Source of the DNA: Bermanella sp.
GTDB lineage: Bacteria; Pseudomonadota; Gammaproteobacteria; Pseudomonadales; Oceanobacteraceae
Reading direction: 5' to 3'
Assembly (NCBI GenBank): GCA_034111105.1
Contig: JAWUXY010000031.1
Location: 1 to 27,342, forward strand
DNA: 27,342 bases
Shown: positions 7,044 to 15,077 of the stretch, piece by piece
How positions within the stretch are numbered: the stretch's first letter is position 1
Layout of the letters: each line of letters starts with the position of its first letter
Notes under the pieces: generated by a model
Told to the model about the DNA's origin: nothing
Databases searched by the model: none
Seen by the model: only the letters and a program-made list of their open reading frames with translations
Translations under genes and position numbers: made by a program

Positions 7044-7379
7044 ATGTTAGCGCAAGAAAGTTGTGAAGCGTGTCGTGCGGATGCGCCAAACGTGACGGAT
7101 ATTGAATTAACCGATTTTATGCCGGCCATACCTGAATGGCTTAATATAAATGAAGAAAGCGTTGCGAAGTTGCGCCGTAGCTTTGCTTTTAAAAGCTACA
7201 AGCAAGCGCTTAGTTTTACCAATGATCTGGCTTATTTAGCCGAGCAAGAAGATCATCATCCCGATATTTTATTACAATGGGGGAAAGTAACCGTTACATG
7301 GTGGACGCATAAAATTAATGGGTTACACAAAAACGATTTTATCATGGCTGCCAGAACAGACGCATTATACAAACATTAA
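7044..7379 (+). CDS. phhB: 4a-hydroxytetrahydrobiopterin dehydratase (pterin carbinolamine dehydratase)
   Basis: [55 protein letters not shown]. Confidence 0.92.
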
Positions 7380-7714
7380 CGGCTGAGTCTTAATGTATCG
7401 ACTTTAAGTACTCGACCTTCACAGTCGCTTGTGATTACGGTGAGTGACAGACCACTTTTAAGTGCTTCAAGCGCCATTAAAAAGCGTCTTTGCGCGACCG
7501 TGTCATACTCACTGTATACGCGATAAACATTAGATGGCTTACCGCCACAGTTGTGTATCTTATTAGCCGAATGAATATCAAACGGCGCTTCTTCATCATC
7601 GACTCTTTGTTCTAAGCCGCTCACTGACAAGCCTTCTACTGCACGTTCATTTCCCCGAGCATTGGTCATAAAAGCGCAGACGCAGAGAATAATCATTAGT
7701 CGATGTAAAAACAT
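7376..7714 (-). CDS. Small hypothetical secreted protein, divergent from the motor-like cluster
   Basis: N-terminal hydrophobic signal ([15 protein letters not shown]); two Cys in the mature part (HNCGG, TSDCEG). Confidence 0.6.
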
Positions 7715-7864
7715 TGTTGTCCTAATTTCAAGTCATCTTATCCTTATCTAAGTATCGACGTAAAAGCTGAAAACTAAAGGATTTTAACAACTAAACATAG
7801 CGTGTACTCATGCTTGAGCTATGCTTTGTAATTGAGTGTATGGCGAAAATGGATGATGCCAAGG

Positions 7865-8965
7865 ATGAAGCAGGACAACGGACTTTACTCGAATAAATAT
7901 GTAATTTTATCGGCGCTATTCTTTATATTATGCGCCATATTTTCGTCGTATGCCTTTTCTGAAACCCGAGTAGTGACATCAGATGTTCCCGGTTTTGGAT
8001 TGCCCCCTACCATGTATGCTGGCTTTTCTCGTCTATTAGATGACGAAAGTATCCTTGTACCCGAAGAGTTATTAGATGTTGATAAAAACATCAAACGTAT
8101 CGCATTTTATTTTAATGGCGATCGCCTGCATCGAAAAATCCCAAAACAAGTTCACTTAATGATTGAGAATAAATTGCTTGGCAAGTTCATGGGGTTAGGC
8201 CGATTTGAAGTGATCGATTGCATTGAGTGTCGTACTACCCGCGTTAATTTCGAAGACTCTCGTATGCTGATTAGCCAGAGTGCGCAAAGTAATCAGGACT
8301 TGCGTGATTTATCTAAAGATGTGCGAGCGGATGCTTTTTTGTTATGGAGCGCCAGTGTGCATGAAGACAAATTCACTATTAATTTACGATTAGTCAGCGC
8401 AAAAAGTAATGAATTAGTGTGGTTAAAAGAATATGCGAAAAAAACCACACGAGAACAAGAAGAGCTTGAATTTGAAAGTATTGAAATGGAAATGGTCGTC
8501 AGCTCATGGGGATTGGCCGCAGAGCGTGATGGCGTTGGAGCTGTCGAAGATGCCACGCTCAGTGGCGTGACCGCTTTTGGAATTCGACGCCGAGAATACA
8601 CCACTTTAAATAAGGATGTAGAATACAGTTTGGGCGTTGAATATTTTAGGAACTTCTCAAGCAGTGATGAATTTGATGTCAGTGGTTTTAATTTAGAAGG
8701 GCGAATATTTGTTAATATTTCTGCGTTAAAAGATTGGGTTAATACCAAAGCCTACGTAGGAATCGGCCAAGCCTTTTTCAGCGGCAGTCACGGTTTGATG
8801 ATGAAATTCGGTTTAGAGTTTCCATTTGTGACTAATGGCTTTATGGCGATTGGAGCCGTGTACTTGGTTAAAGAAGATGTTGAATGGGATAGTAATGCCG
8901 ATTATGAAGACAGCTCTGAATTTGGTGGTGCTGGTTTGGACTTAACCCTCGGCTATCGGTTCTAA
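7865..8965 (+). CDS. Envelope protein: CsgG/FlgO-like N-domain plus C-terminal outer-membrane beta-barrel-like region (motor-like cluster gene 1)
   Basis: ORF track start is TTG 7832; internal ATG 7865 (or 7853) precedes a signal peptide (YVILSALFFILCAIFSSYAFSE). 'LRDLSKDVRADAFLLWSASVHEDKFTINLRLVSAKSNELVW' is the CsgG/FlgO-type pattern. C-terminus has alternating aromatic strands and ends '...GGAGLDLTLGYRF'. Confidence 0.7.
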   Translation: MKQDNGLYSNKYVILSALFFILCAIFSSYAFSETRVVTSDVPGFGLPPTMYAGFSRLLDDESILVPEELLDVDKNIKRIAFYFNGDRLHRKIPKQVHLMIENKLLGKFMGLGRFEVIDCIECRTTRVNFEDSRMLISQSAQSNQDLRDLSKDVRADAFLLWSASVHEDKFTINLRLVSAKSNELVWLKEYAKKTTREQEELEFESIEMEMVVSSWGLAAERDGVGAVEDATLSGVTAFGIRRREYTTLNKDVEYSLGVEYFRNFSSSDEFDVSGFNLEGRIFVNISALKDWVNTKAYVGIGQAFFSGSHGLMMKFGLEFPFVTNGFMAIGAVYLVKEDVEWDSNADYEDSSEFGGAGLDLTLGYRF

Positions 8966-8975
8966 GGAATAAAAT

Positions 8976-9605
8976 ATGAAAACCATTTTATTACTCCTGT
9001 TTATAATGGTCGCTTGTTTAAGTGGCTGCTCGATTGAACAGCTGGCCATGGAAAAGGATCCATTTATGGAACAAAAACCAGCAGAAGATATCGATCCTTT
9101 AAATTCAGAGAGTGCGGAATACGCAAAAAACAATCATGGCGTTGTGAATATACACCGCCATGGCCCAGGTTATGACGTCATGATGATGCTGAACGCAGGC
9201 GAAAGCGATATTATCTTCAGCATGGATTTACCTGTAGGTGGCGCAACCTATATGCCAGAAATTTCAGAGCAAATGAAAGCACATCGAAAAAAAGGGAAGG
9301 GTTCTAATAACGCTGAAGAAGAGAATGATTTTTTTAATGAAAAAGCCTTATCACTTTTCTCTGATGCGACAAAACATATGCTCAGTGCACAGGCTTTGTT
9401 TTATCGTAAATCGTATTGGAAAGCACTCGAGCAAACGAACAAAGCAATGTCTCTAGTGCCGGCGTCTGCACAGGCTTATGCTTTGAAAGGCAGTATTTAT
9501 TACAAAATGGGCCGTAAAAAAGAAGCCAAAGTATCATGGCAGCAAGCATTGCAATTAGACCCTTCTTTAACGGAAGTTAAAGAGAGTTTAAAGCTCGTTA
9601 AGTAG
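8976..9605 (+). CDS. TPR-repeat lipoprotein (motor-like cluster gene 2)
   Basis: Lipobox 'VACLSGC'; C-terminal TPR pattern 'ALFYRKSYWKALEQTNKAMSLVPASAQAYALKGSIYYKMGRKKEAKVSWQQALQLDPS'. Confidence 0.85.
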   Translation: MKTILLLLFIMVACLSGCSIEQLAMEKDPFMEQKPAEDIDPLNSESAEYAKNNHGVVNIHRHGPGYDVMMMLNAGESDIIFSMDLPVGGATYMPEISEQMKAHRKKGKGSNNAEEENDFFNEKALSLFSDATKHMLSAQALFYRKSYWKALEQTNKAMSLVPASAQAYALKGSIYYKMGRKKEAKVSWQQALQLDPSLTEVKESLKLVK

Positions 9606-9614
9606 GGAATATCT

Positions 9615-11555
9615 ATGCTGAAAAAATATGGATTATTATGGGTAGTGTTAGCCAGTTTATCGTTAATAGCGCAGGCCGCGACGAACACGCCTGTTGAAGT
9701 ACAAACAAAAACCGATGACTTAGAAGAGCTACAGCTTAAATCACAACTAGAAGATAGTCTGGCTCGTGATATTCAGTCTTATCTTGGCCATAATCGATTT
9801 ATTGTCAACGTGAAAGTAAACCTTGAAAAAATTCGCCAAGTTATTAAAACAAAATCAAAACAATCAACACCATTATCTAAAACATACCAACCTACTTTTT
9901 TGCCAAAGCTCACGTTTCCTAATGCAGTTGAAGATGATACTTATGAGGTAGAAAGCTTACCCGGGTTGCCCTTTGTTGATATTCCGGGCGATAAAGAAAA
10001 AGACGCTGAACTGAAGTTTATGCGAGAACAGGTTGAACGTTTACAGCAAGAACAGCGTCAACCACGTTGGCAGGATAGAGAAAACGAAGATGCAAGCGGT
10101 AATGGTGGCTCAGAAGAAACCGTAGGGGTATTTAATCGTATTGCTAAACTAATGGTTACATTAGCGGTTGAAGAAAATGTGAGTGCAGAGCAAGAAGCTT
10201 TTTTAAGAAATTTAGTTTACCAAAAAGCGTCGCTTAATGACTTACGGGGTGATGAGCTTAAAATTATTAGAACACAGTTTTCCAGTATCCCTATAACGGA
10301 AAAAGAAAAGGAACAAATTGCGTCGCCGTTTTCTGATGAGTCAGCGCCGGCACAAAATTGGATGGATGAAAATTTCAATGCGCTATTGTTAGGGTTGTTA
10401 AGTTTATTAGCATTACTGCTAATTAGTTTGATTGTGTTATCAATGCGTAAAAAATCACAACCAAGCGAAGCACAAAATATGTCATCCAGTGACATATCAC
10501 ATACACCTAATGTGTTAGCCACTCCTGAAGCGGAAGGCCCAGACAGTAAGCTCATCATGCAAAAAACTCGGCAAGATATTATATCGCTCGGTTTAGGTCA
10601 GCCTCAGCATGTTCAAGGCACAATGGACCAATTATTGAGCCAAGAAGAAAAAATACCCATGGCGGCGTCTATTTATAAAGTATTGGGTCGCAGCTTGTTT
10701 CGCTCTATTTTTCCTAATATTGAGCAATTTCAGTTGCAAAGTATCATGGCTCACTTAGCCGATCAGCCGCCGGATGACGATCAGCAATTTCAAGACACTC
10801 AAGATTTTTATCAATTATTGCAAAAATCCGTGCAAGAAACAGCAGAAGTAAAATCGCACCCTTTTGAATTTTTAGGCAAATTAAATGACAGCCAAGTTTT
10901 GTATTTGATGCAACATGAAGATGCTCGCATTCAAGCTTTGGTGATTAGTCAACTGCAAGCGCAGCAAGCCGCGCGAGTACTCAATCGCATTAATGAAAAA
11001 CGCCAAGCCCAAGTCATTGCAGAGTTAGGCCAGTTTGAAACATTCCCGTTGGATACCTTTAAAGATGTCGCCGATCGTTTAGCTAAATCTGCATTAAACG
11101 TCCCTAGCTTTGAAAACGTTAATGCTGATGGTTTGCATATGTTAATGAACATGTTGGATAACATGAATTCAACCGAAGAGAACAAAGTATTAAAACGCTT
11201 AAAGCAAGATAAGCCGGATACGTTTTATAAGCTGCGCCAACAATATTTTACCTTTGCAGATGTTGTTAAAACCCCAAGACAAATTCTTAGTAACGCACTG
11301 CGTGAAGTGGAGCGCAGTTTCATTGGCCGTGCGATTTGTGGTACTCCTGATGATTTTAAAATTCATGTGTTGTCATCATTGACGCCCAAGTTGAAAGCCT
11401 TAGCAAAAGAGGACTTAAAGCGTTATGAAGGGCGCATTGGTGCCAAAGATGTGGAATCTGCTCGTAAAGCGATTGTGCATAAGTTGCGTGAGTATATTCA
11501 TACGGGCAAATTCTCTATGGACGAACTGCAAGTCAAAAAGCAGGCTGAGTCATGA
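9615..11555 (+). CDS. FliF(RBM3+TM)-FliG-like natural fusion protein (motor-like cluster gene 3)
   Basis: Signal peptide aa 1-21. aa ~36-226 resembles FliF RBM3 ('QLEDSLARDIQSYLGHNRFIVNVKVNLE', 'NRIAKLMVTLAVEENVSAEQEAFLRNLVYQKASLNDLRGDELKIIRTQF'). TM aa ~255-277. aa ~340-635 aligns by eye with FliG N, M and C domains. Confidence 0.8.
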   Translation: MLKKYGLLWVVLASLSLIAQAATNTPVEVQTKTDDLEELQLKSQLEDSLARDIQSYLGHNRFIVNVKVNLEKIRQVIKTKSKQSTPLSKTYQPTFLPKLTFPNAVEDDTYEVESLPGLPFVDIPGDKEKDAELKFMREQVERLQQEQRQPRWQDRENEDASGNGGSEETVGVFNRIAKLMVTLAVEENVSAEQEAFLRNLVYQKASLNDLRGDELKIIRTQFSSIPITEKEKEQIASPFSDESAPAQNWMDENFNALLLGLLSLLALLLISLIVLSMRKKSQPSEAQNMSSSDISHTPNVLATPEAEGPDSKLIMQKTRQDIISLGLGQPQHVQGTMDQLLSQEEKIPMAASIYKVLGRSLFRSIFPNIEQFQLQSIMAHLADQPPDDDQQFQDTQDFYQLLQKSVQETAEVKSHPFEFLGKLNDSQVLYLMQHEDARIQALVISQLQAQQAARVLNRINEKRQAQVIAELGQFETFPLDTFKDVADRLAKSALNVPSFENVNADGLHMLMNMLDNMNSTEENKVLKRLKQDKPDTFYKLRQQYFTFADVVKTPRQILSNALREVERSFIGRAICGTPDDFKIHVLSSLTPKLKALAKEDLKRYEGRIGAKDVESARKAIVHKLREYIHTGKFSMDELQVKKQAES

Positions 11556-12349
11556 TTAGTTTTAGTACGCTCATTGGTATCACAGCAGGTATTGGCTTAT
11601 TTGTTTTGGCCATTGCCAGTAGTACAGATAACTACATGATGTTTTTAAATCTTGCCAGCGCCATGATGGTGATCGGCAGTACGTTTGCAGCATCGCTCAT
11701 TAGCTTTAGTTTTTTAGAAGTGATGCACGCTGTGAAAGCCATGTTTCAAACGCTTGCGGCTGGGCATACGACACAAGTGCATTTACGCGACCTAGTAAAG
11801 CGCTTTGTGGAATTTAGCCGCATTTATCGTGATGGTGGTATTTCTGCCTTAGAAGATAGTTTAAGCAATAAAGAAAAAAATGATGATTTCTTGTCGTTAG
11901 GGCTAGAGCTAATGGGCTCGGGTTACAAGCAAAGTGATATCCGTGTGATTATGGGGGATGCCATGGACAGCCATTGGCAGCGCCAAAGTCTAGAAGGTAA
12001 AATCCTTAATACCATGGGCATTTATGCACCCGGCTTTGGCATGGTGGGCACCATTGTTGGTTTGATTATCATGCTGGATAACATGGGCGATGATATGGCC
12101 AATCTAGGCAAAGGGTTAGCGTTGGCGTTAATTACGACGCTTTATGGAGTGTTACTCGCTAATCTTTTGTTTAAACCCACTGCGGCGCAAGTGACAGAGA
12201 AACAAGAGCAAGAGTATTTCCGTAATCAATTAATAACCGATGGTTTTGTATTACTGGCTGAAAAAAAGGACGCACTTGTAATGCAAGATCGCCTTAATGC
12301 GTATGTGAAACCCAACAAACGCTTCACCATAGTCGAAACCAATGAGTGA
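11552..12349 (+). CDS. MotA/PomA-family stator-like protein (motor-like cluster gene 4)
   Basis: 265 aa, four hydrophobic segments, cytoplasmic 'SRIYRDGGISALEDSL' loop and 'GIYAPGFGMVGTIVGLIIMLDNM' as in PomA; 4-bp ATGA overlap with the previous gene. Confidence 0.92.
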   Translation: MISFSTLIGITAGIGLFVLAIASSTDNYMMFLNLASAMMVIGSTFAASLISFSFLEVMHAVKAMFQTLAAGHTTQVHLRDLVKRFVEFSRIYRDGGISALEDSLSNKEKNDDFLSLGLELMGSGYKQSDIRVIMGDAMDSHWQRQSLEGKILNTMGIYAPGFGMVGTIVGLIIMLDNMGDDMANLGKGLALALITTLYGVLLANLLFKPTAAQVTEKQEQEYFRNQLITDGFVLLAEKKDALVMQDRLNAYVKPNKRFTIVETNE

Positions 12350-13022
12350 CAAGACTTACAAGCGAGGCTTAAGGCGTCGCCGTGCTACGTTTGATGCTGA
12401 CGGTGAAGGTTGGTTAGTAACCTATGCCGATGCCATTACATTGCTACTGGCGTTTTTTGTGATGATTCTTTCGGTATCGGATCTCAATCAAGGCAAGATC
12501 GAAGCCTTAAAAGAAGGCTTAGCGAGCATTATCTCAGGCAAGCAAGCTCAAACCCCGTTTAACGATATTAAAGACGCGCTGGATGACATTGTTAAGCAGC
12601 ACGGCATGCAAGACTATGTGGCGGTTGATATCGATATGAAGGGGGTTCGGGTTGAATTCTCTAATTTCTCTTTATATCAGTCAGGCAGTGCCGCAATTAA
12701 ACCCGAAGCCTTGCCCATGCTGGCTGAGGTCACAAGAGTTATTAAAGACACCAGTTCATCGACGCACCTCATCGAAATAGAAGGACACACAGACGATGTG
12801 CCCATACATACCGAGCGCTTCCCTTCGAACTGGGAACTCAGCGCTTCGCGCGCCAGTAATGTGGTCAAATACCTTTTGGGCAAGGGCGTTGATAAAGAGC
12901 GATTGAAGGCGTCAGGTTACGCCGACTCTCGCCCTAAGGCTGTACTTGAGCCGGGGCAGGCTTTTACTGAAGACGACAGGGCGGCCAACAGGCGAGTCGT
13001 TATTTATGTAAAGCGTTACTAA
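12342..13022 (+). CDS. MotB-family stator-like protein with OmpA-like peptidoglycan-binding domain (motor-like cluster gene 5)
   Basis: 'GWLVTYADAITLLLAFFVMILSVSD' (Asp30) and 'EIEGHTDDVPIHTERFPSNWELSASRASNVVKYLL...GYADSRP'. Confidence 0.93.
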   Translation: MSDKTYKRGLRRRRATFDADGEGWLVTYADAITLLLAFFVMILSVSDLNQGKIEALKEGLASIISGKQAQTPFNDIKDALDDIVKQHGMQDYVAVDIDMKGVRVEFSNFSLYQSGSAAIKPEALPMLAEVTRVIKDTSSSTHLIEIEGHTDDVPIHTERFPSNWELSASRASNVVKYLLGKGVDKERLKASGYADSRPKAVLEPGQAFTEDDRAANRRVVIYVKRY

Positions 13023-13052
13023 CATCTATAAAACCCGTAACTCCTATTTCAG

Positions 13053-13083
13053 GCCCTATGTGAAAGCATAGGGCTGTTTTTTT
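13053..13083 (+). terminator. Rho-independent terminator ending the motor-like cluster
   Basis: gccctatg-tgaaag-catagggc followed by tgttttttt. Confidence 0.85.
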
Positions 13084-13310
13084 GATGGGTAGTTTTTGCT
13101 TGGTCTGCCATAGGAATTCTTTTGTATTTTGCTCCATTATTTGAGCGATCAACAGATTACTTAATGACCGATTTATTGCTTTTAGTTGTGCAGTTATAAG
13201 TAAAAAGTACTCGGTTACTAGGTGATGGGTTTATAGCAGGTGCCTAAAGTGGCGAATGATGACTATCTCGCCTGAAAAATAGACTATTCTGAATATTATG
13301 AAAAAGATGA

Positions 13311-15077
<1,767 letters not shown>

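Follow-up and report, generated by a model that had tools for sequence, protein, structure and literature searches.

In a 27,342-nt stretch of DNA from the marine bacterium Bermanella sp. (contig JAWUXY010000031.1 of assembly GCA_034111105.1; the whole of this stretch is called the window below), we identified a five-gene operon (positions 7832–13022) whose third gene encodes, in one open reading frame (ORF), a protein that joins a FliF-like ring-building region to a FliG-like region. The other genes encode a secreted protein of 377 amino acids (aa), designated OM377, a tetratricopeptide repeat (TPR) lipoprotein, and a pair of stator proteins of the MotA and MotB types; the first three genes are separated by 10 and 9 nt, and the last three overlap by 4 and 8 nt. 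A first-pass annotation, made by a model from the sequence alone, was right about the fusion, but overlooked the MotA and MotB genes in the same operon as well as the two envelope proteins. The operon and its downstream end contain the following features:

7832–8965, forward strand: gene 1, OM377, the 377-aa secreted protein (ORF; signal sequence; β-segments; sub-threshold domain matches).
8976–9605, forward strand: gene 2, a TPR lipoprotein of 209 aa with lipobox LSGC (Cys18) and C-terminal TPR repeats (TPR_1, E = 3e-10).
9615–11555, forward strand: gene 3, the fusion of FliF ring-building motif 3 (RBM3) to FliG, 646 aa, uninterrupted in the ORF list.
11552–12349, forward strand: gene 4, a MotA/PomA-type stator protein A of 265 aa with four transmembrane (TM) helices (MotA_ExbB, E = 1e-21); its start overlaps the stop of the fusion gene (ATGA).
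12342–13022, forward strand: gene 5, a MotB-type stator protein B of 226 aa, with a TM helix carrying Asp30, a plug, and an OmpA-like peptidoglycan-binding domain (MotB_plug, E = 2e-14; OmpA, E = 1e-16).
13052–13085, forward strand: an intrinsic-terminator-like hairpin found by sequence scan (10-bp stem and T-run, 30 nt after the motB stop), the probable end of the operon.

The fusion protein contains, in this order, a predicted signal peptide, an RBM3 split by a β-collar insertion, a TM helix, an N-like helical domain, FliG_M, and FliG_C, a layout on which sequence-profile and predicted-fold evidence agree; the architecture of a truncated FliF fused to FliG that the first-pass annotation had proposed is upheld by both kinds of evidence, and all peptides quoted there were found within the ORF at 9615–11555. 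The segments of the fusion gene are:

9615–9677, forward strand: aa 1–21, predicted signal peptide (MLKKYGLLWVVLASLSLIAQA/AT) replacing the first FliF TM helix, TM1 (hydrophobic h-region; small residues at −1 and −3).
9693–9851, forward strand: aa 27–79, RBM3a and the ascending β-collar strand (β 27–31, α 35–57, long β 62–79; AlphaFold2 model; hidden Markov model (HMM) alignment starting at Salmonella FliF residue 234).
9852–10109, forward strand: aa 80–165, insertion at the collar's upper end, mostly disordered (AlphaFold2 confidence score, pLDDT, <50 at aa 80–125 and 149–165), with the invariant LPGLP at aa 115–119 (nt 9957–9971) and a conserved helix at aa 127–148.
10110–10280, forward strand: aa 166–222, descending collar strand and RBM3b (β 166–186, α 191–204, β 214–220), with the invariant RGD at aa 211–213, the counterpart of FliF "KRGDTLNVV" (AlphaFold2 model; profile alignment).
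10368–10454, forward strand: aa 252–280, single TM helix, equivalent of FliF TM2 (Kyte–Doolittle hydropathy, KD, 3.08; AlphaFold2 helix 247–279; profile alignment to the TM2 region).
10545–10850, forward strand: aa 311–412, cytoplasmic helical domain of five helices (pLDDT 82–89; Foldseek; profile alignments).
10851–11114, forward strand: aa 413–500, FliG middle domain, with EHPQ replaced by H434-E435-D436-A437 (PF14841, E = 1.5e-12; alignment to Thermotoga maritima FliG).
11115–11534, forward strand: aa 501–640, FliG C-terminal domain, with torque-helix residues K592 (E. coli R281) and E599/D600 (D288/D289) (PF01706, E = 1.8e-17; 1lkv, E = 7e-22).

FliF carries two TM helices that flank its periplasmic region, whereas hydropathy places a single strong TM helix in the fusion protein, at aa 252–280 (aa ~255–277 in the first-pass annotation). 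The N-terminal hydrophobic stretch is short (aa 5–23; KD over 13 residues = 2.5) and ends in AQA/AT; an AxA-type end, with small residues at −1 and −3 of the predicted cleavage site, is present in all family members, suggesting that aa 1–21 represent a signal peptide in place of TM1, as had been proposed. The mature protein begins at a residue aligned to FliF ~234, and RBM1 and RBM2 (YscJ_FliF, PF01514), which house the export gate in FliF, had no match in the query or in the 66 family members scanned, in agreement with the earlier claim that these domains are missing. AlphaFold2 modeling of the full fusion on a 26-sequence alignment gave a mean pLDDT of 72.

Several searches connect the N-terminal half to FliF. 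The query alone matched Pfam YscJ_FliF_C (PF08345) over aa 55–222 (profile positions 3–147 of 147) at E = 0.006 and 17.5 bits, below the 23.8-bit cut-off; this family was detected in 23 of 26 full-length relatives scanned singly (best E = 3.8e-9). A profile of the whole protein matched Salmonella FliF in the PDB (E = 1.6e-5; FliF 353–555), and a profile of aa 22–350, built from 15 orthologues including two distant ones, had Salmonella FliF as its sole PDB match (E = 2.5e-8), colinear with FliF 234–522. This span comprises RBM3a (residues 228–270 in Salmonella FliF), the β-collar, RBM3b, and TM2 (domain limits from PMC11739650). A profile restricted to aa 22–245 reached FliF in the PDB at a non-significant E = 2.6; significance required the TM helix and the two distant homologues. 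The AlphaFold2 fold of the N-terminal region is that of an RBM3 split by a two-strand β-collar insertion, as modeled, which matches the two-part RBM3 of the first-pass annotation and places the region inside the RBM3/collar fold rather than outside the ring-building fold, the outcome that annotation had named as speaking against its proposal. When the model of the N-terminal 224 residues (pLDDT 69) was compared with the PDB by Foldseek, each of the top 18 matches was a FliF S-ring/RBM3 chain, at E-values of 5e-6 to 1.6e-4, followed by PrgK (E = 0.09) and SpoIIIAG (E = 0.2); the root-mean-square deviations to the FliF chains are large (~20 Å), which we attribute, as a conjecture, to the collar hairpin of the free monomer model lying outside its in-ring orientation.

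Positions retained in this half include L115, P116, and G117, found in 37 to 39 of 40 distant members (17–34% identity), and D213 of the RGD motif, found in all 40. HMMER pairs the LPGLP of the family with FliF "VPGAL", immediately before S317-N318 in the flexible loop 305–354; in FliF, this collar-top loop holds the rod, and the substitution N318T loosens the rod (PMC11739650). Because a Salmonella RBM3 fragment by itself assembles the S-ring and β-collar (PMC11739650), assembly of the fusion protein into a ring, which by analogy with FliF would have ~33–34 subunits, is plausible.

In the FliG half, Pfam FliG_M (aa 426–496) and FliG_C (aa 528–634) matched the query above their curated cut-offs, with the E-values listed above, and both PF14841 and PF01706 were present in 66/66 family members. 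A phmmer search of the PDB aligned aa 415–632 with the M and C domains of T. maritima FliG (E = 7e-22), and Foldseek aligned 315 columns of the full model with full-length FliG (3hjl, 8umx_B; E ~2e-9). Numbering of the torque helix was taken from the Thermotoga alignment and verified against Salmonella FliG numbering; on this basis, K592 is a lysine in 26/26 close members and R or K in 33 of 40 distant ones, and position 600 is acidic (D/E) in 26/26, with E or D at position 599 in 13 of 26. Of the FliG N, M, and C domains named in the first-pass annotation, M and C are thus significant, but N is weak by sequence: hhalign aligned aa 348–405 with Salmonella/Vibrio FliG 8–66 at E = 0.009, a profile of aa 280–420 had no match in the PDB, and Pfam FliG_N matches mostly cross-map to the M domain, so that a FliG_N-like domain (aa ~345–380) is supported by the predicted fold, through the 315-column Foldseek alignment, and only weakly by sequence. 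Because the whole-protein profile alignment reaches FliF 555, aa ~311–342 could possibly represent an equivalent of the FliF C-terminal FliG-binding helix, which we offer as a lead only. The FliM-binding motif EHPQR is not retained; HEDA is found at aa 434–437, and the sole invariant positions are E435 and R438. With EHPQ replaced by HEDA and no fliM or fliN linked, the protein is unlikely to form a strict C-ring; of the minimal MS-ring/C-ring rotor suggested in the first-pass annotation, the ring-building and FliG parts are present, but a true C-ring is improbable. The NCBIfam FliG equivalog TIGR00207 scored 79.4 bits, under its cut-off of 226.7.

A homology search identified 186 relatives at E ≤ 1e-5; among the 120 matches listed of these 186, most had 95–100% query coverage and 36–100% identity, and the relatives listed come from Bermanella, Oceaniserpentilla, Thalassolituus, and Oleispira. 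A search for related loci found the gene at 40 distinct genome loci, 39 with a single ORF of ~630–710 aa and one (L017) with a contig-truncated fragment. An HMM search of 1.84 billion representatives found ~159 clusters (50% identity) at E ≤ 1e-30, most of them ~560–730 aa and aligned from RBM3b to the C-terminus. The motifs LPG 115–117, RGD 211–213, PFxFL 416–420, E435, and G506 are kept in the 40 distant representatives. Compared with an orthologue at 82% identity, nonsynonymous differences (pN) are 0.04–0.05 per site in RBM3a, the N-like domain, FliG_M, and FliG_C, and synonymous differences (pS) are ~0.7, near saturation; the fusion gene is under strong purifying selection in every domain. 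Databases label the family "flagellar motor switch protein FliG" or "FliG C-terminal domain-containing protein". Such labels, together with the adjacency of fliF and fliG in canonical operons, from which a read-through fusion is easily made, could be taken to indicate either what is left of a second, decaying flagellar system or an artefact of assembly or frameshift, a joining of two genes that the first-pass annotation had itself raised as a caveat. The relatives, however, carry the same single ORF across the genome loci and the metagenomic clusters, every domain is under purifying selection, motifs are invariant at 17–34% identity, and the synteny of the five genes is kept; an artefact joining fliF and fliG is ruled out, and the remnant or artefact explanation as a whole is, for practical purposes, refuted. 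One of the loci (L013, JBLHVV010000051.1) lies on a contig of a metagenome-assembled genome assigned to Crocinitomicaceae (Bacteroidota) and is of the Bermanella type; this contig is probably mis-binned, as its fumA and pyrG show 94% and 90% identity to those of the window.

The MotA protein of the operon matched NCBIfam MotP, MotA, and PomA families at E = 1e-48 to 1e-39, under the equivalog cut-offs (best 162.9 bits vs 394, for MotP), and its closest matches were Clostridium sporogenes MotA (2.6e-36) and Vibrio PomA (2e-29). R93 is present in 15/15 orthologues, and position 101 is E in 13 and D in two of them (down to 43–46% identity); R93 and E101, the rotor-facing Arg and Glu, align to PomA R88 and E96. 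The MotB protein matched NCBIfam MotD at E = 5e-53 (180.2 bits vs a cut-off of 283); its channel residue Asp30 is invariant, and TY(A/S)D is kept in 15/15 orthologues. Both proteins thus show the features of flagellar-type stators (four TM helices and the Arg/Glu pair in MotA; channel Asp, plug, and OmpA-like domain in MotB), and their type is that of MotP, PomA, and MotD (1e-39 to 1e-53) rather than of ExbB/TolQ (~5e-3) or ZorA (7e-4). These comparisons mark them as paralogues of the named flagellar stators rather than orthologues.

OM377 has an N-terminal signal sequence, and its C-terminal half contains ~8 amphipathic β-segments and ends in ...LGYRF (hydropathy and strand alternation), suggesting a probable outer-membrane β-barrel. 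Its periplasmic domain matched Pfam FlgO below threshold (E = 0.0017; 18.6 bits vs 22.6), as did that of 10 of 15 orthologues, and occasional sub-threshold matches to LpoB, CsgG, and FlgT_M were found; no PDB relative (single sequence or profile) and no NCBIfam family were identified for OM377. A C130-x-E-C133 motif (window positions 8219–8230, FEVIDCIECRTT) is invariant in 15/15 orthologues, down to 28% identity, and may form a periplasmic disulfide or a metal site. The TPR lipoprotein showed weak NCBIfam matches to PilW, GltE, and BatC-type TPR lipoproteins. Upstream of the operon, a 12-nt inverted repeat (7790–7801 and 7818–7829; ACTAAACATAGC ... GCTATGCTTTGT) with 83% complementarity and arms 16 nt apart ends 3 nt before the first start codon and could represent an operator or a 5′ hairpin; a σ70 consensus scan found sites no more numerous than in shuffled sequences.

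A tblastn survey found the five genes together at every genome locus (n = 40) with a contig reaching far enough; OM377 is syntenic, and the TPR lipoprotein gene adjoins the fusion gene, in all 40. In L038 and L040, the most distant of these genomes, the genes run MotA-MotB-OM377-TPR-fusion, and all five are retained. For the distant metagenomic relatives, the contigs of ten representatives yielded eleven loci, in which OM377-like homology was checked separately; the TPR gene adjoins the fusion gene in 10 of these, an OM377 homologue was detected in six, and the full five-gene set is present in four (L047, L048, L050, and L051). Two further loci have the order TPR-fusion-MotA-MotB (L042) and the fusion gene followed by two ORFs and then MotA-MotB (L044). 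We conclude that these genes constitute a conserved, widely distributed five-gene module that consists of homologues of the flagellar rotor and stator and lacks secretion and axial parts.

Some distant loci show additional neighbors. In L042 (8953–12262), genes for a MoxR AAA ATPase, DUF58, DUF4381, and VWA proteins (a "Bat"-like set) directly follow MotB, which may be noted beside the weak BatC-type match of the TPR lipoprotein in the window. In L047 (1–15827) and L051 (1–13884), the module is flanked by a gene for a TraG/VirD4-like ATPase and by conserved ORFs of ~505 and ~250 aa; downstream ORFs are ~1045 and ~395 aa long, and a phage-integrase gene stands at the end of L047. In some lineages, therefore, the module may be mobile.

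Compared with the canonical flagellar rotor and stator, the module shares RBM3a, the β-collar, RBM3b, TM2, and possibly the cytoplasmic tail, colinear with Salmonella FliF 234–555, the M/C torque helix of FliG, the Arg/Glu pair of MotA, and the Asp, plug, and OmpA-like anchor of MotB. It differs in that a single polypeptide is found, with a predicted signal peptide in place of RBM1, RBM2, and TM1 and without a retained EHPQ, in that no fliM/N, flagellar type III secretion system, rod, hook, or filament is linked and an outer-membrane protein and a TPR lipoprotein are found instead, and in that all NCBIfam flagellar equivalog cut-offs are missed. Because RBM1/2, a second TM helix, EHPQR, and linkage to an export apparatus are all missing and the equivalog scores are too low, the family is, on its sequence features, a paralogous offshoot that is neither FliF nor FliG.

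A natural FliF–FliG fusion has been described in Chlamydiaceae (Bergeron 2016, PeerJ; PMC4768692), and in the searchable (non-subscription) literature it was the sole such fusion found; searches there for natural fusions, non-flagellar FliG, and FliF paralogues yielded no description of the present family. Both have a FliF-like periplasmic ring-building region, a TM segment, a FliG-like cytoplasmic region, and a flagellum-free context (PMC4768692). The chlamydial protein, however, has ~330 aa, RBM2 and an unassigned RBM, only a FliG_M-like region, both TM helices, and no dedicated MotAB (PMC4768692); it lacks an RBM3/SpoIIIAG-like domain, whereas the present family holds the opposite half of FliF and an N-like/M/C FliG set. 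This reverse domain content (RBM3 present, RBM2 absent, FliG M and C present) excludes membership in the chlamydial family. Engineered Salmonella and Vibrio FliF–FliG fusions share with the present protein a single chain compatible with ring assembly, and one of them (8z4d) was matched by both halves of the query; they differ in having full-length FliF with RBM1–3, both TM helices, and a complete flagellum (PDB 8z4d/8z4g; PMC10941966, PMC11481574, PMC6079021). SpoIIIAG and SctJ/PrgK share the RBM fold, and the β-insertion of SpoIIIAG forms a collar-like barrel; their similarity (the weak Foldseek matches at E = 0.09–0.2) is far weaker than that of FliF, and both lack a FliG domain as well as a stator partner.

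On balance, and with modest confidence, we favor the interpretation that the five genes encode a self-contained envelope machine, derived from or sharing ancestry with the flagellar motor, in which the fusion protein serves as rotor subunit. RBM3 would oligomerize into an S-ring and β-collar above the inner membrane, the FliG domains would thereby form a ring under the membrane, and peptidoglycan-anchored MotA5B2 units would use ion flow to push FliG_C and turn this ring. Instead of the rod, the LPGLP collar loop would hold a partner in the periplasm, most likely the FlgO-like periplasmic domain of OM377 and/or the TPR lipoprotein, and torque or force would pass to the outer membrane without a type III export apparatus, rod, hook, or filament. 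In support of this rotor, K592 and E599/D600 of the FliG region, R93 and position 101 of MotA, and Asp30 of MotB are all conserved at the rotor–stator interface, the five genes are co-inherited across deep divergence, rearranged order included, and engineered FliF–FliG fusions form rings (PDB 8z4d/8z4g; PMC10941966, PMC11481574).

A number of points weigh against a rotor of this kind. Ring formation, stoichiometry, and rotation are what we infer; which partner the collar loop binds is guesswork, and the FlgO-type match of OM377 is sub-threshold. The equivalents of FliG_N and of the FliF C-tail are weakly supported, an invariant Cys takes the place of E. coli FliG K264, and R297 has been lost. 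Four of the distant loci (L043, L045, L046, and L049) have a TPR gene, with or without a gene for an outer-membrane-like protein, and the fusion gene, with MotAB not nearby (none within 6–7 kb in L045, L046, and L049). A further distant locus (L041, 8001–11709), on a 2.1-Mb contig, encodes a 771-aa member (P0157) next to a KAP-family NTPase, with no MotAB, TPR, or outer-membrane partner nearby; the sub-branch around this locus may have a different partner.

The envelope proteins of the operon also fit a non-rotary force transducer, in which FliG would only dock to and activate MotAB. The ion-driven conformational work of MotAB would then be relayed by the single-pass fusion protein to both envelope partners, the TPR lipoprotein and the outer-membrane protein, and neither a closed ring nor continuous rotation would be involved; such a device would resemble TolQRA-Pal or ExbBD-TonB and could serve outer-membrane integrity, uptake, or surface-polymer handling. 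We consider this explanation unlikely, although it accounts for an operon that encodes both an outer-membrane protein and an outer-membrane lipoprotein, for the weak matches of the TPR protein to the gliding and pilus TPR lipoproteins GltE and PilW, and for the lack of linked rod or bushing genes in the window. To our knowledge, every other non-flagellar system of the MotAB/ExbBD type (Tol, Ton, GldLM, Agl-Glt) energizes the outer membrane through a periplasm-spanning partner. A transducer without a ring is harder to reconcile with a periplasmic part that is the ring-forming RBM3/β-collar of FliF, which self-assembles in Salmonella, with a stator of the flagellar rather than the Tol/Exb type, and with retention of the torque-helix charge pairs for rotation. 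The module shares with GldLM (type IX secretion system), AglRQS-Glt, TolQR-A, ExbBD-TonB, and ZorAB an inner-membrane ion-driven motor of the 5:2 type that is genetically tied to outer-membrane or periplasmic partners; it differs from all of them in its driven element, which in those systems is never FliG or an RBM ring. A Zorya-like anti-phage system was considered and rejected: the PADLOC ZorA match (E = 7e-4) covers only the shared channel region, ZorB matches are of the generic MotB type, and the other three proteins were unmatched, so that the Zorya combination of a ZorA with a long cytoplasmic tail and ZorC/D or other effector genes is not seen here.

The surroundings of the operon and the motility of related hosts bear on another explanation, namely that the five proteins are accessories of an ordinary polar flagellum, assembling around or beside its basal body like FlgO/FlgP/FlgT/MotX/MotY or PflA/PflB and recruiting a second stator, so that the MotAB of the operon would drive the flagellum. 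TPR and Sel1 proteins act as scaffolds for the stators of Vibrio and Campylobacter, and the sub-threshold FlgO, FlgT_M, and LpoB-type matches of OM377 would be in line with such a role. Cultured relatives in the host clade carry one polar flagellum of the ordinary kind (PMC3759055, PMC6248924), whose genes in Oleispira antarctica lie in a flagellar cluster at another place in the genome (PMC3759055); in Oleibacter marinus 2O1, which shares the number DSM 24913 with one of the genomes surveyed here (L028), a single giant flagellin is the only one annotated (PMC6248924). The genome paper on O. antarctica describes "two stator systems MotAB and PomAB" for the single flagellum, taking the second MotAB as an alternative flagellar stator (PMC3759055). 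The operon is present in several Oleispira genomes (L021, L023–L025, L030, L034, and L039), and the O. antarctica "MotAB" may be the dedicated stator of this operon. A role as flagellar accessory is nevertheless quite improbable. The operon is located in a housekeeping region outside the flagellar cluster, with maf, sodB, fumA, and pcd upstream and pyrG, eno, ispD, ispF, truD, surE, pcm, nlpD, and rpoS downstream, and no FliM/N, export, rod, or other flagellar genes were found beyond the operon in the 27-kb window. In addition, the fusion protein has its own complete FliG_C and a ring-building domain, which would be superfluous for a scaffold, the FliM-binding EHPQ motif is lost, and no σ28- or σ54-like promoter was seen in 7700–7831 on reading by eye only.

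The five-gene system looks to be a relative of the flagellar motor that stands alone and has so far gone undescribed. A broader proposal, which we put forward tentatively as a real possibility somewhat short of probable, is that it represents an unrecognized class of stand-alone ion-driven rotary machine, in which an RBM3–FliG ring would be spun by its own MotAB and linked by the β-collar loop to an outer-membrane β-barrel and a TPR lipoprotein, without a type III secretion core or axial filament. The combination found here, a rotor and stator without secretion system, rod, hook, and filament, is not a flagellum. If the ring forms and turns, ~650 residues of one protein would be the smallest natural FliG/MotAB rotor known; since engineered FliF–FliG fusions already yield rings suitable for cryo-electron microscopy, structural and single-molecule torque studies look feasible. 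If the rotary interpretation is true, this would be the first non-flagellar use of the FliG–MotA torque interface, and it would show that the rotor–stator pair of the flagellum is able to work without the export apparatus and may have arisen separately from it. How a secretion system and an ion-driven motor were brought together at the origin of the flagellum becomes testable because a rotor–stator module exists alone in nature. The module may also represent a fifth use of motors of the MotAB/ExbBD type, beside flagella, Ton/Tol, gliding and type IX secretion, and Zorya. At a practical level, "FliG" labels and the MotAB of this operon, possibly counted as a second flagellar stator, may give rise to misleading inferences about motility.

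No Rfam family was found anywhere in the window. A gene on the reverse strand divergent from the operon (7376–7714) encodes a small secreted protein of 112 aa with a signal peptide, a Cys-containing mature part, and no Pfam family; it is syntenic in most close loci (34–68% identity) and was not detected in the two distant rearranged loci. Downstream of the operon, the CTP synthase ORF (13323–15077, forward strand; 584 aa) begins ~40 codons upstream of the conserved N-terminus, and its true start is probably an internal Met. A gene of the RebB ("killing trait", R-body) family (24527–24964, forward strand; E = 1.3e-24) is located beside a DUF3127 gene (23976–24362).

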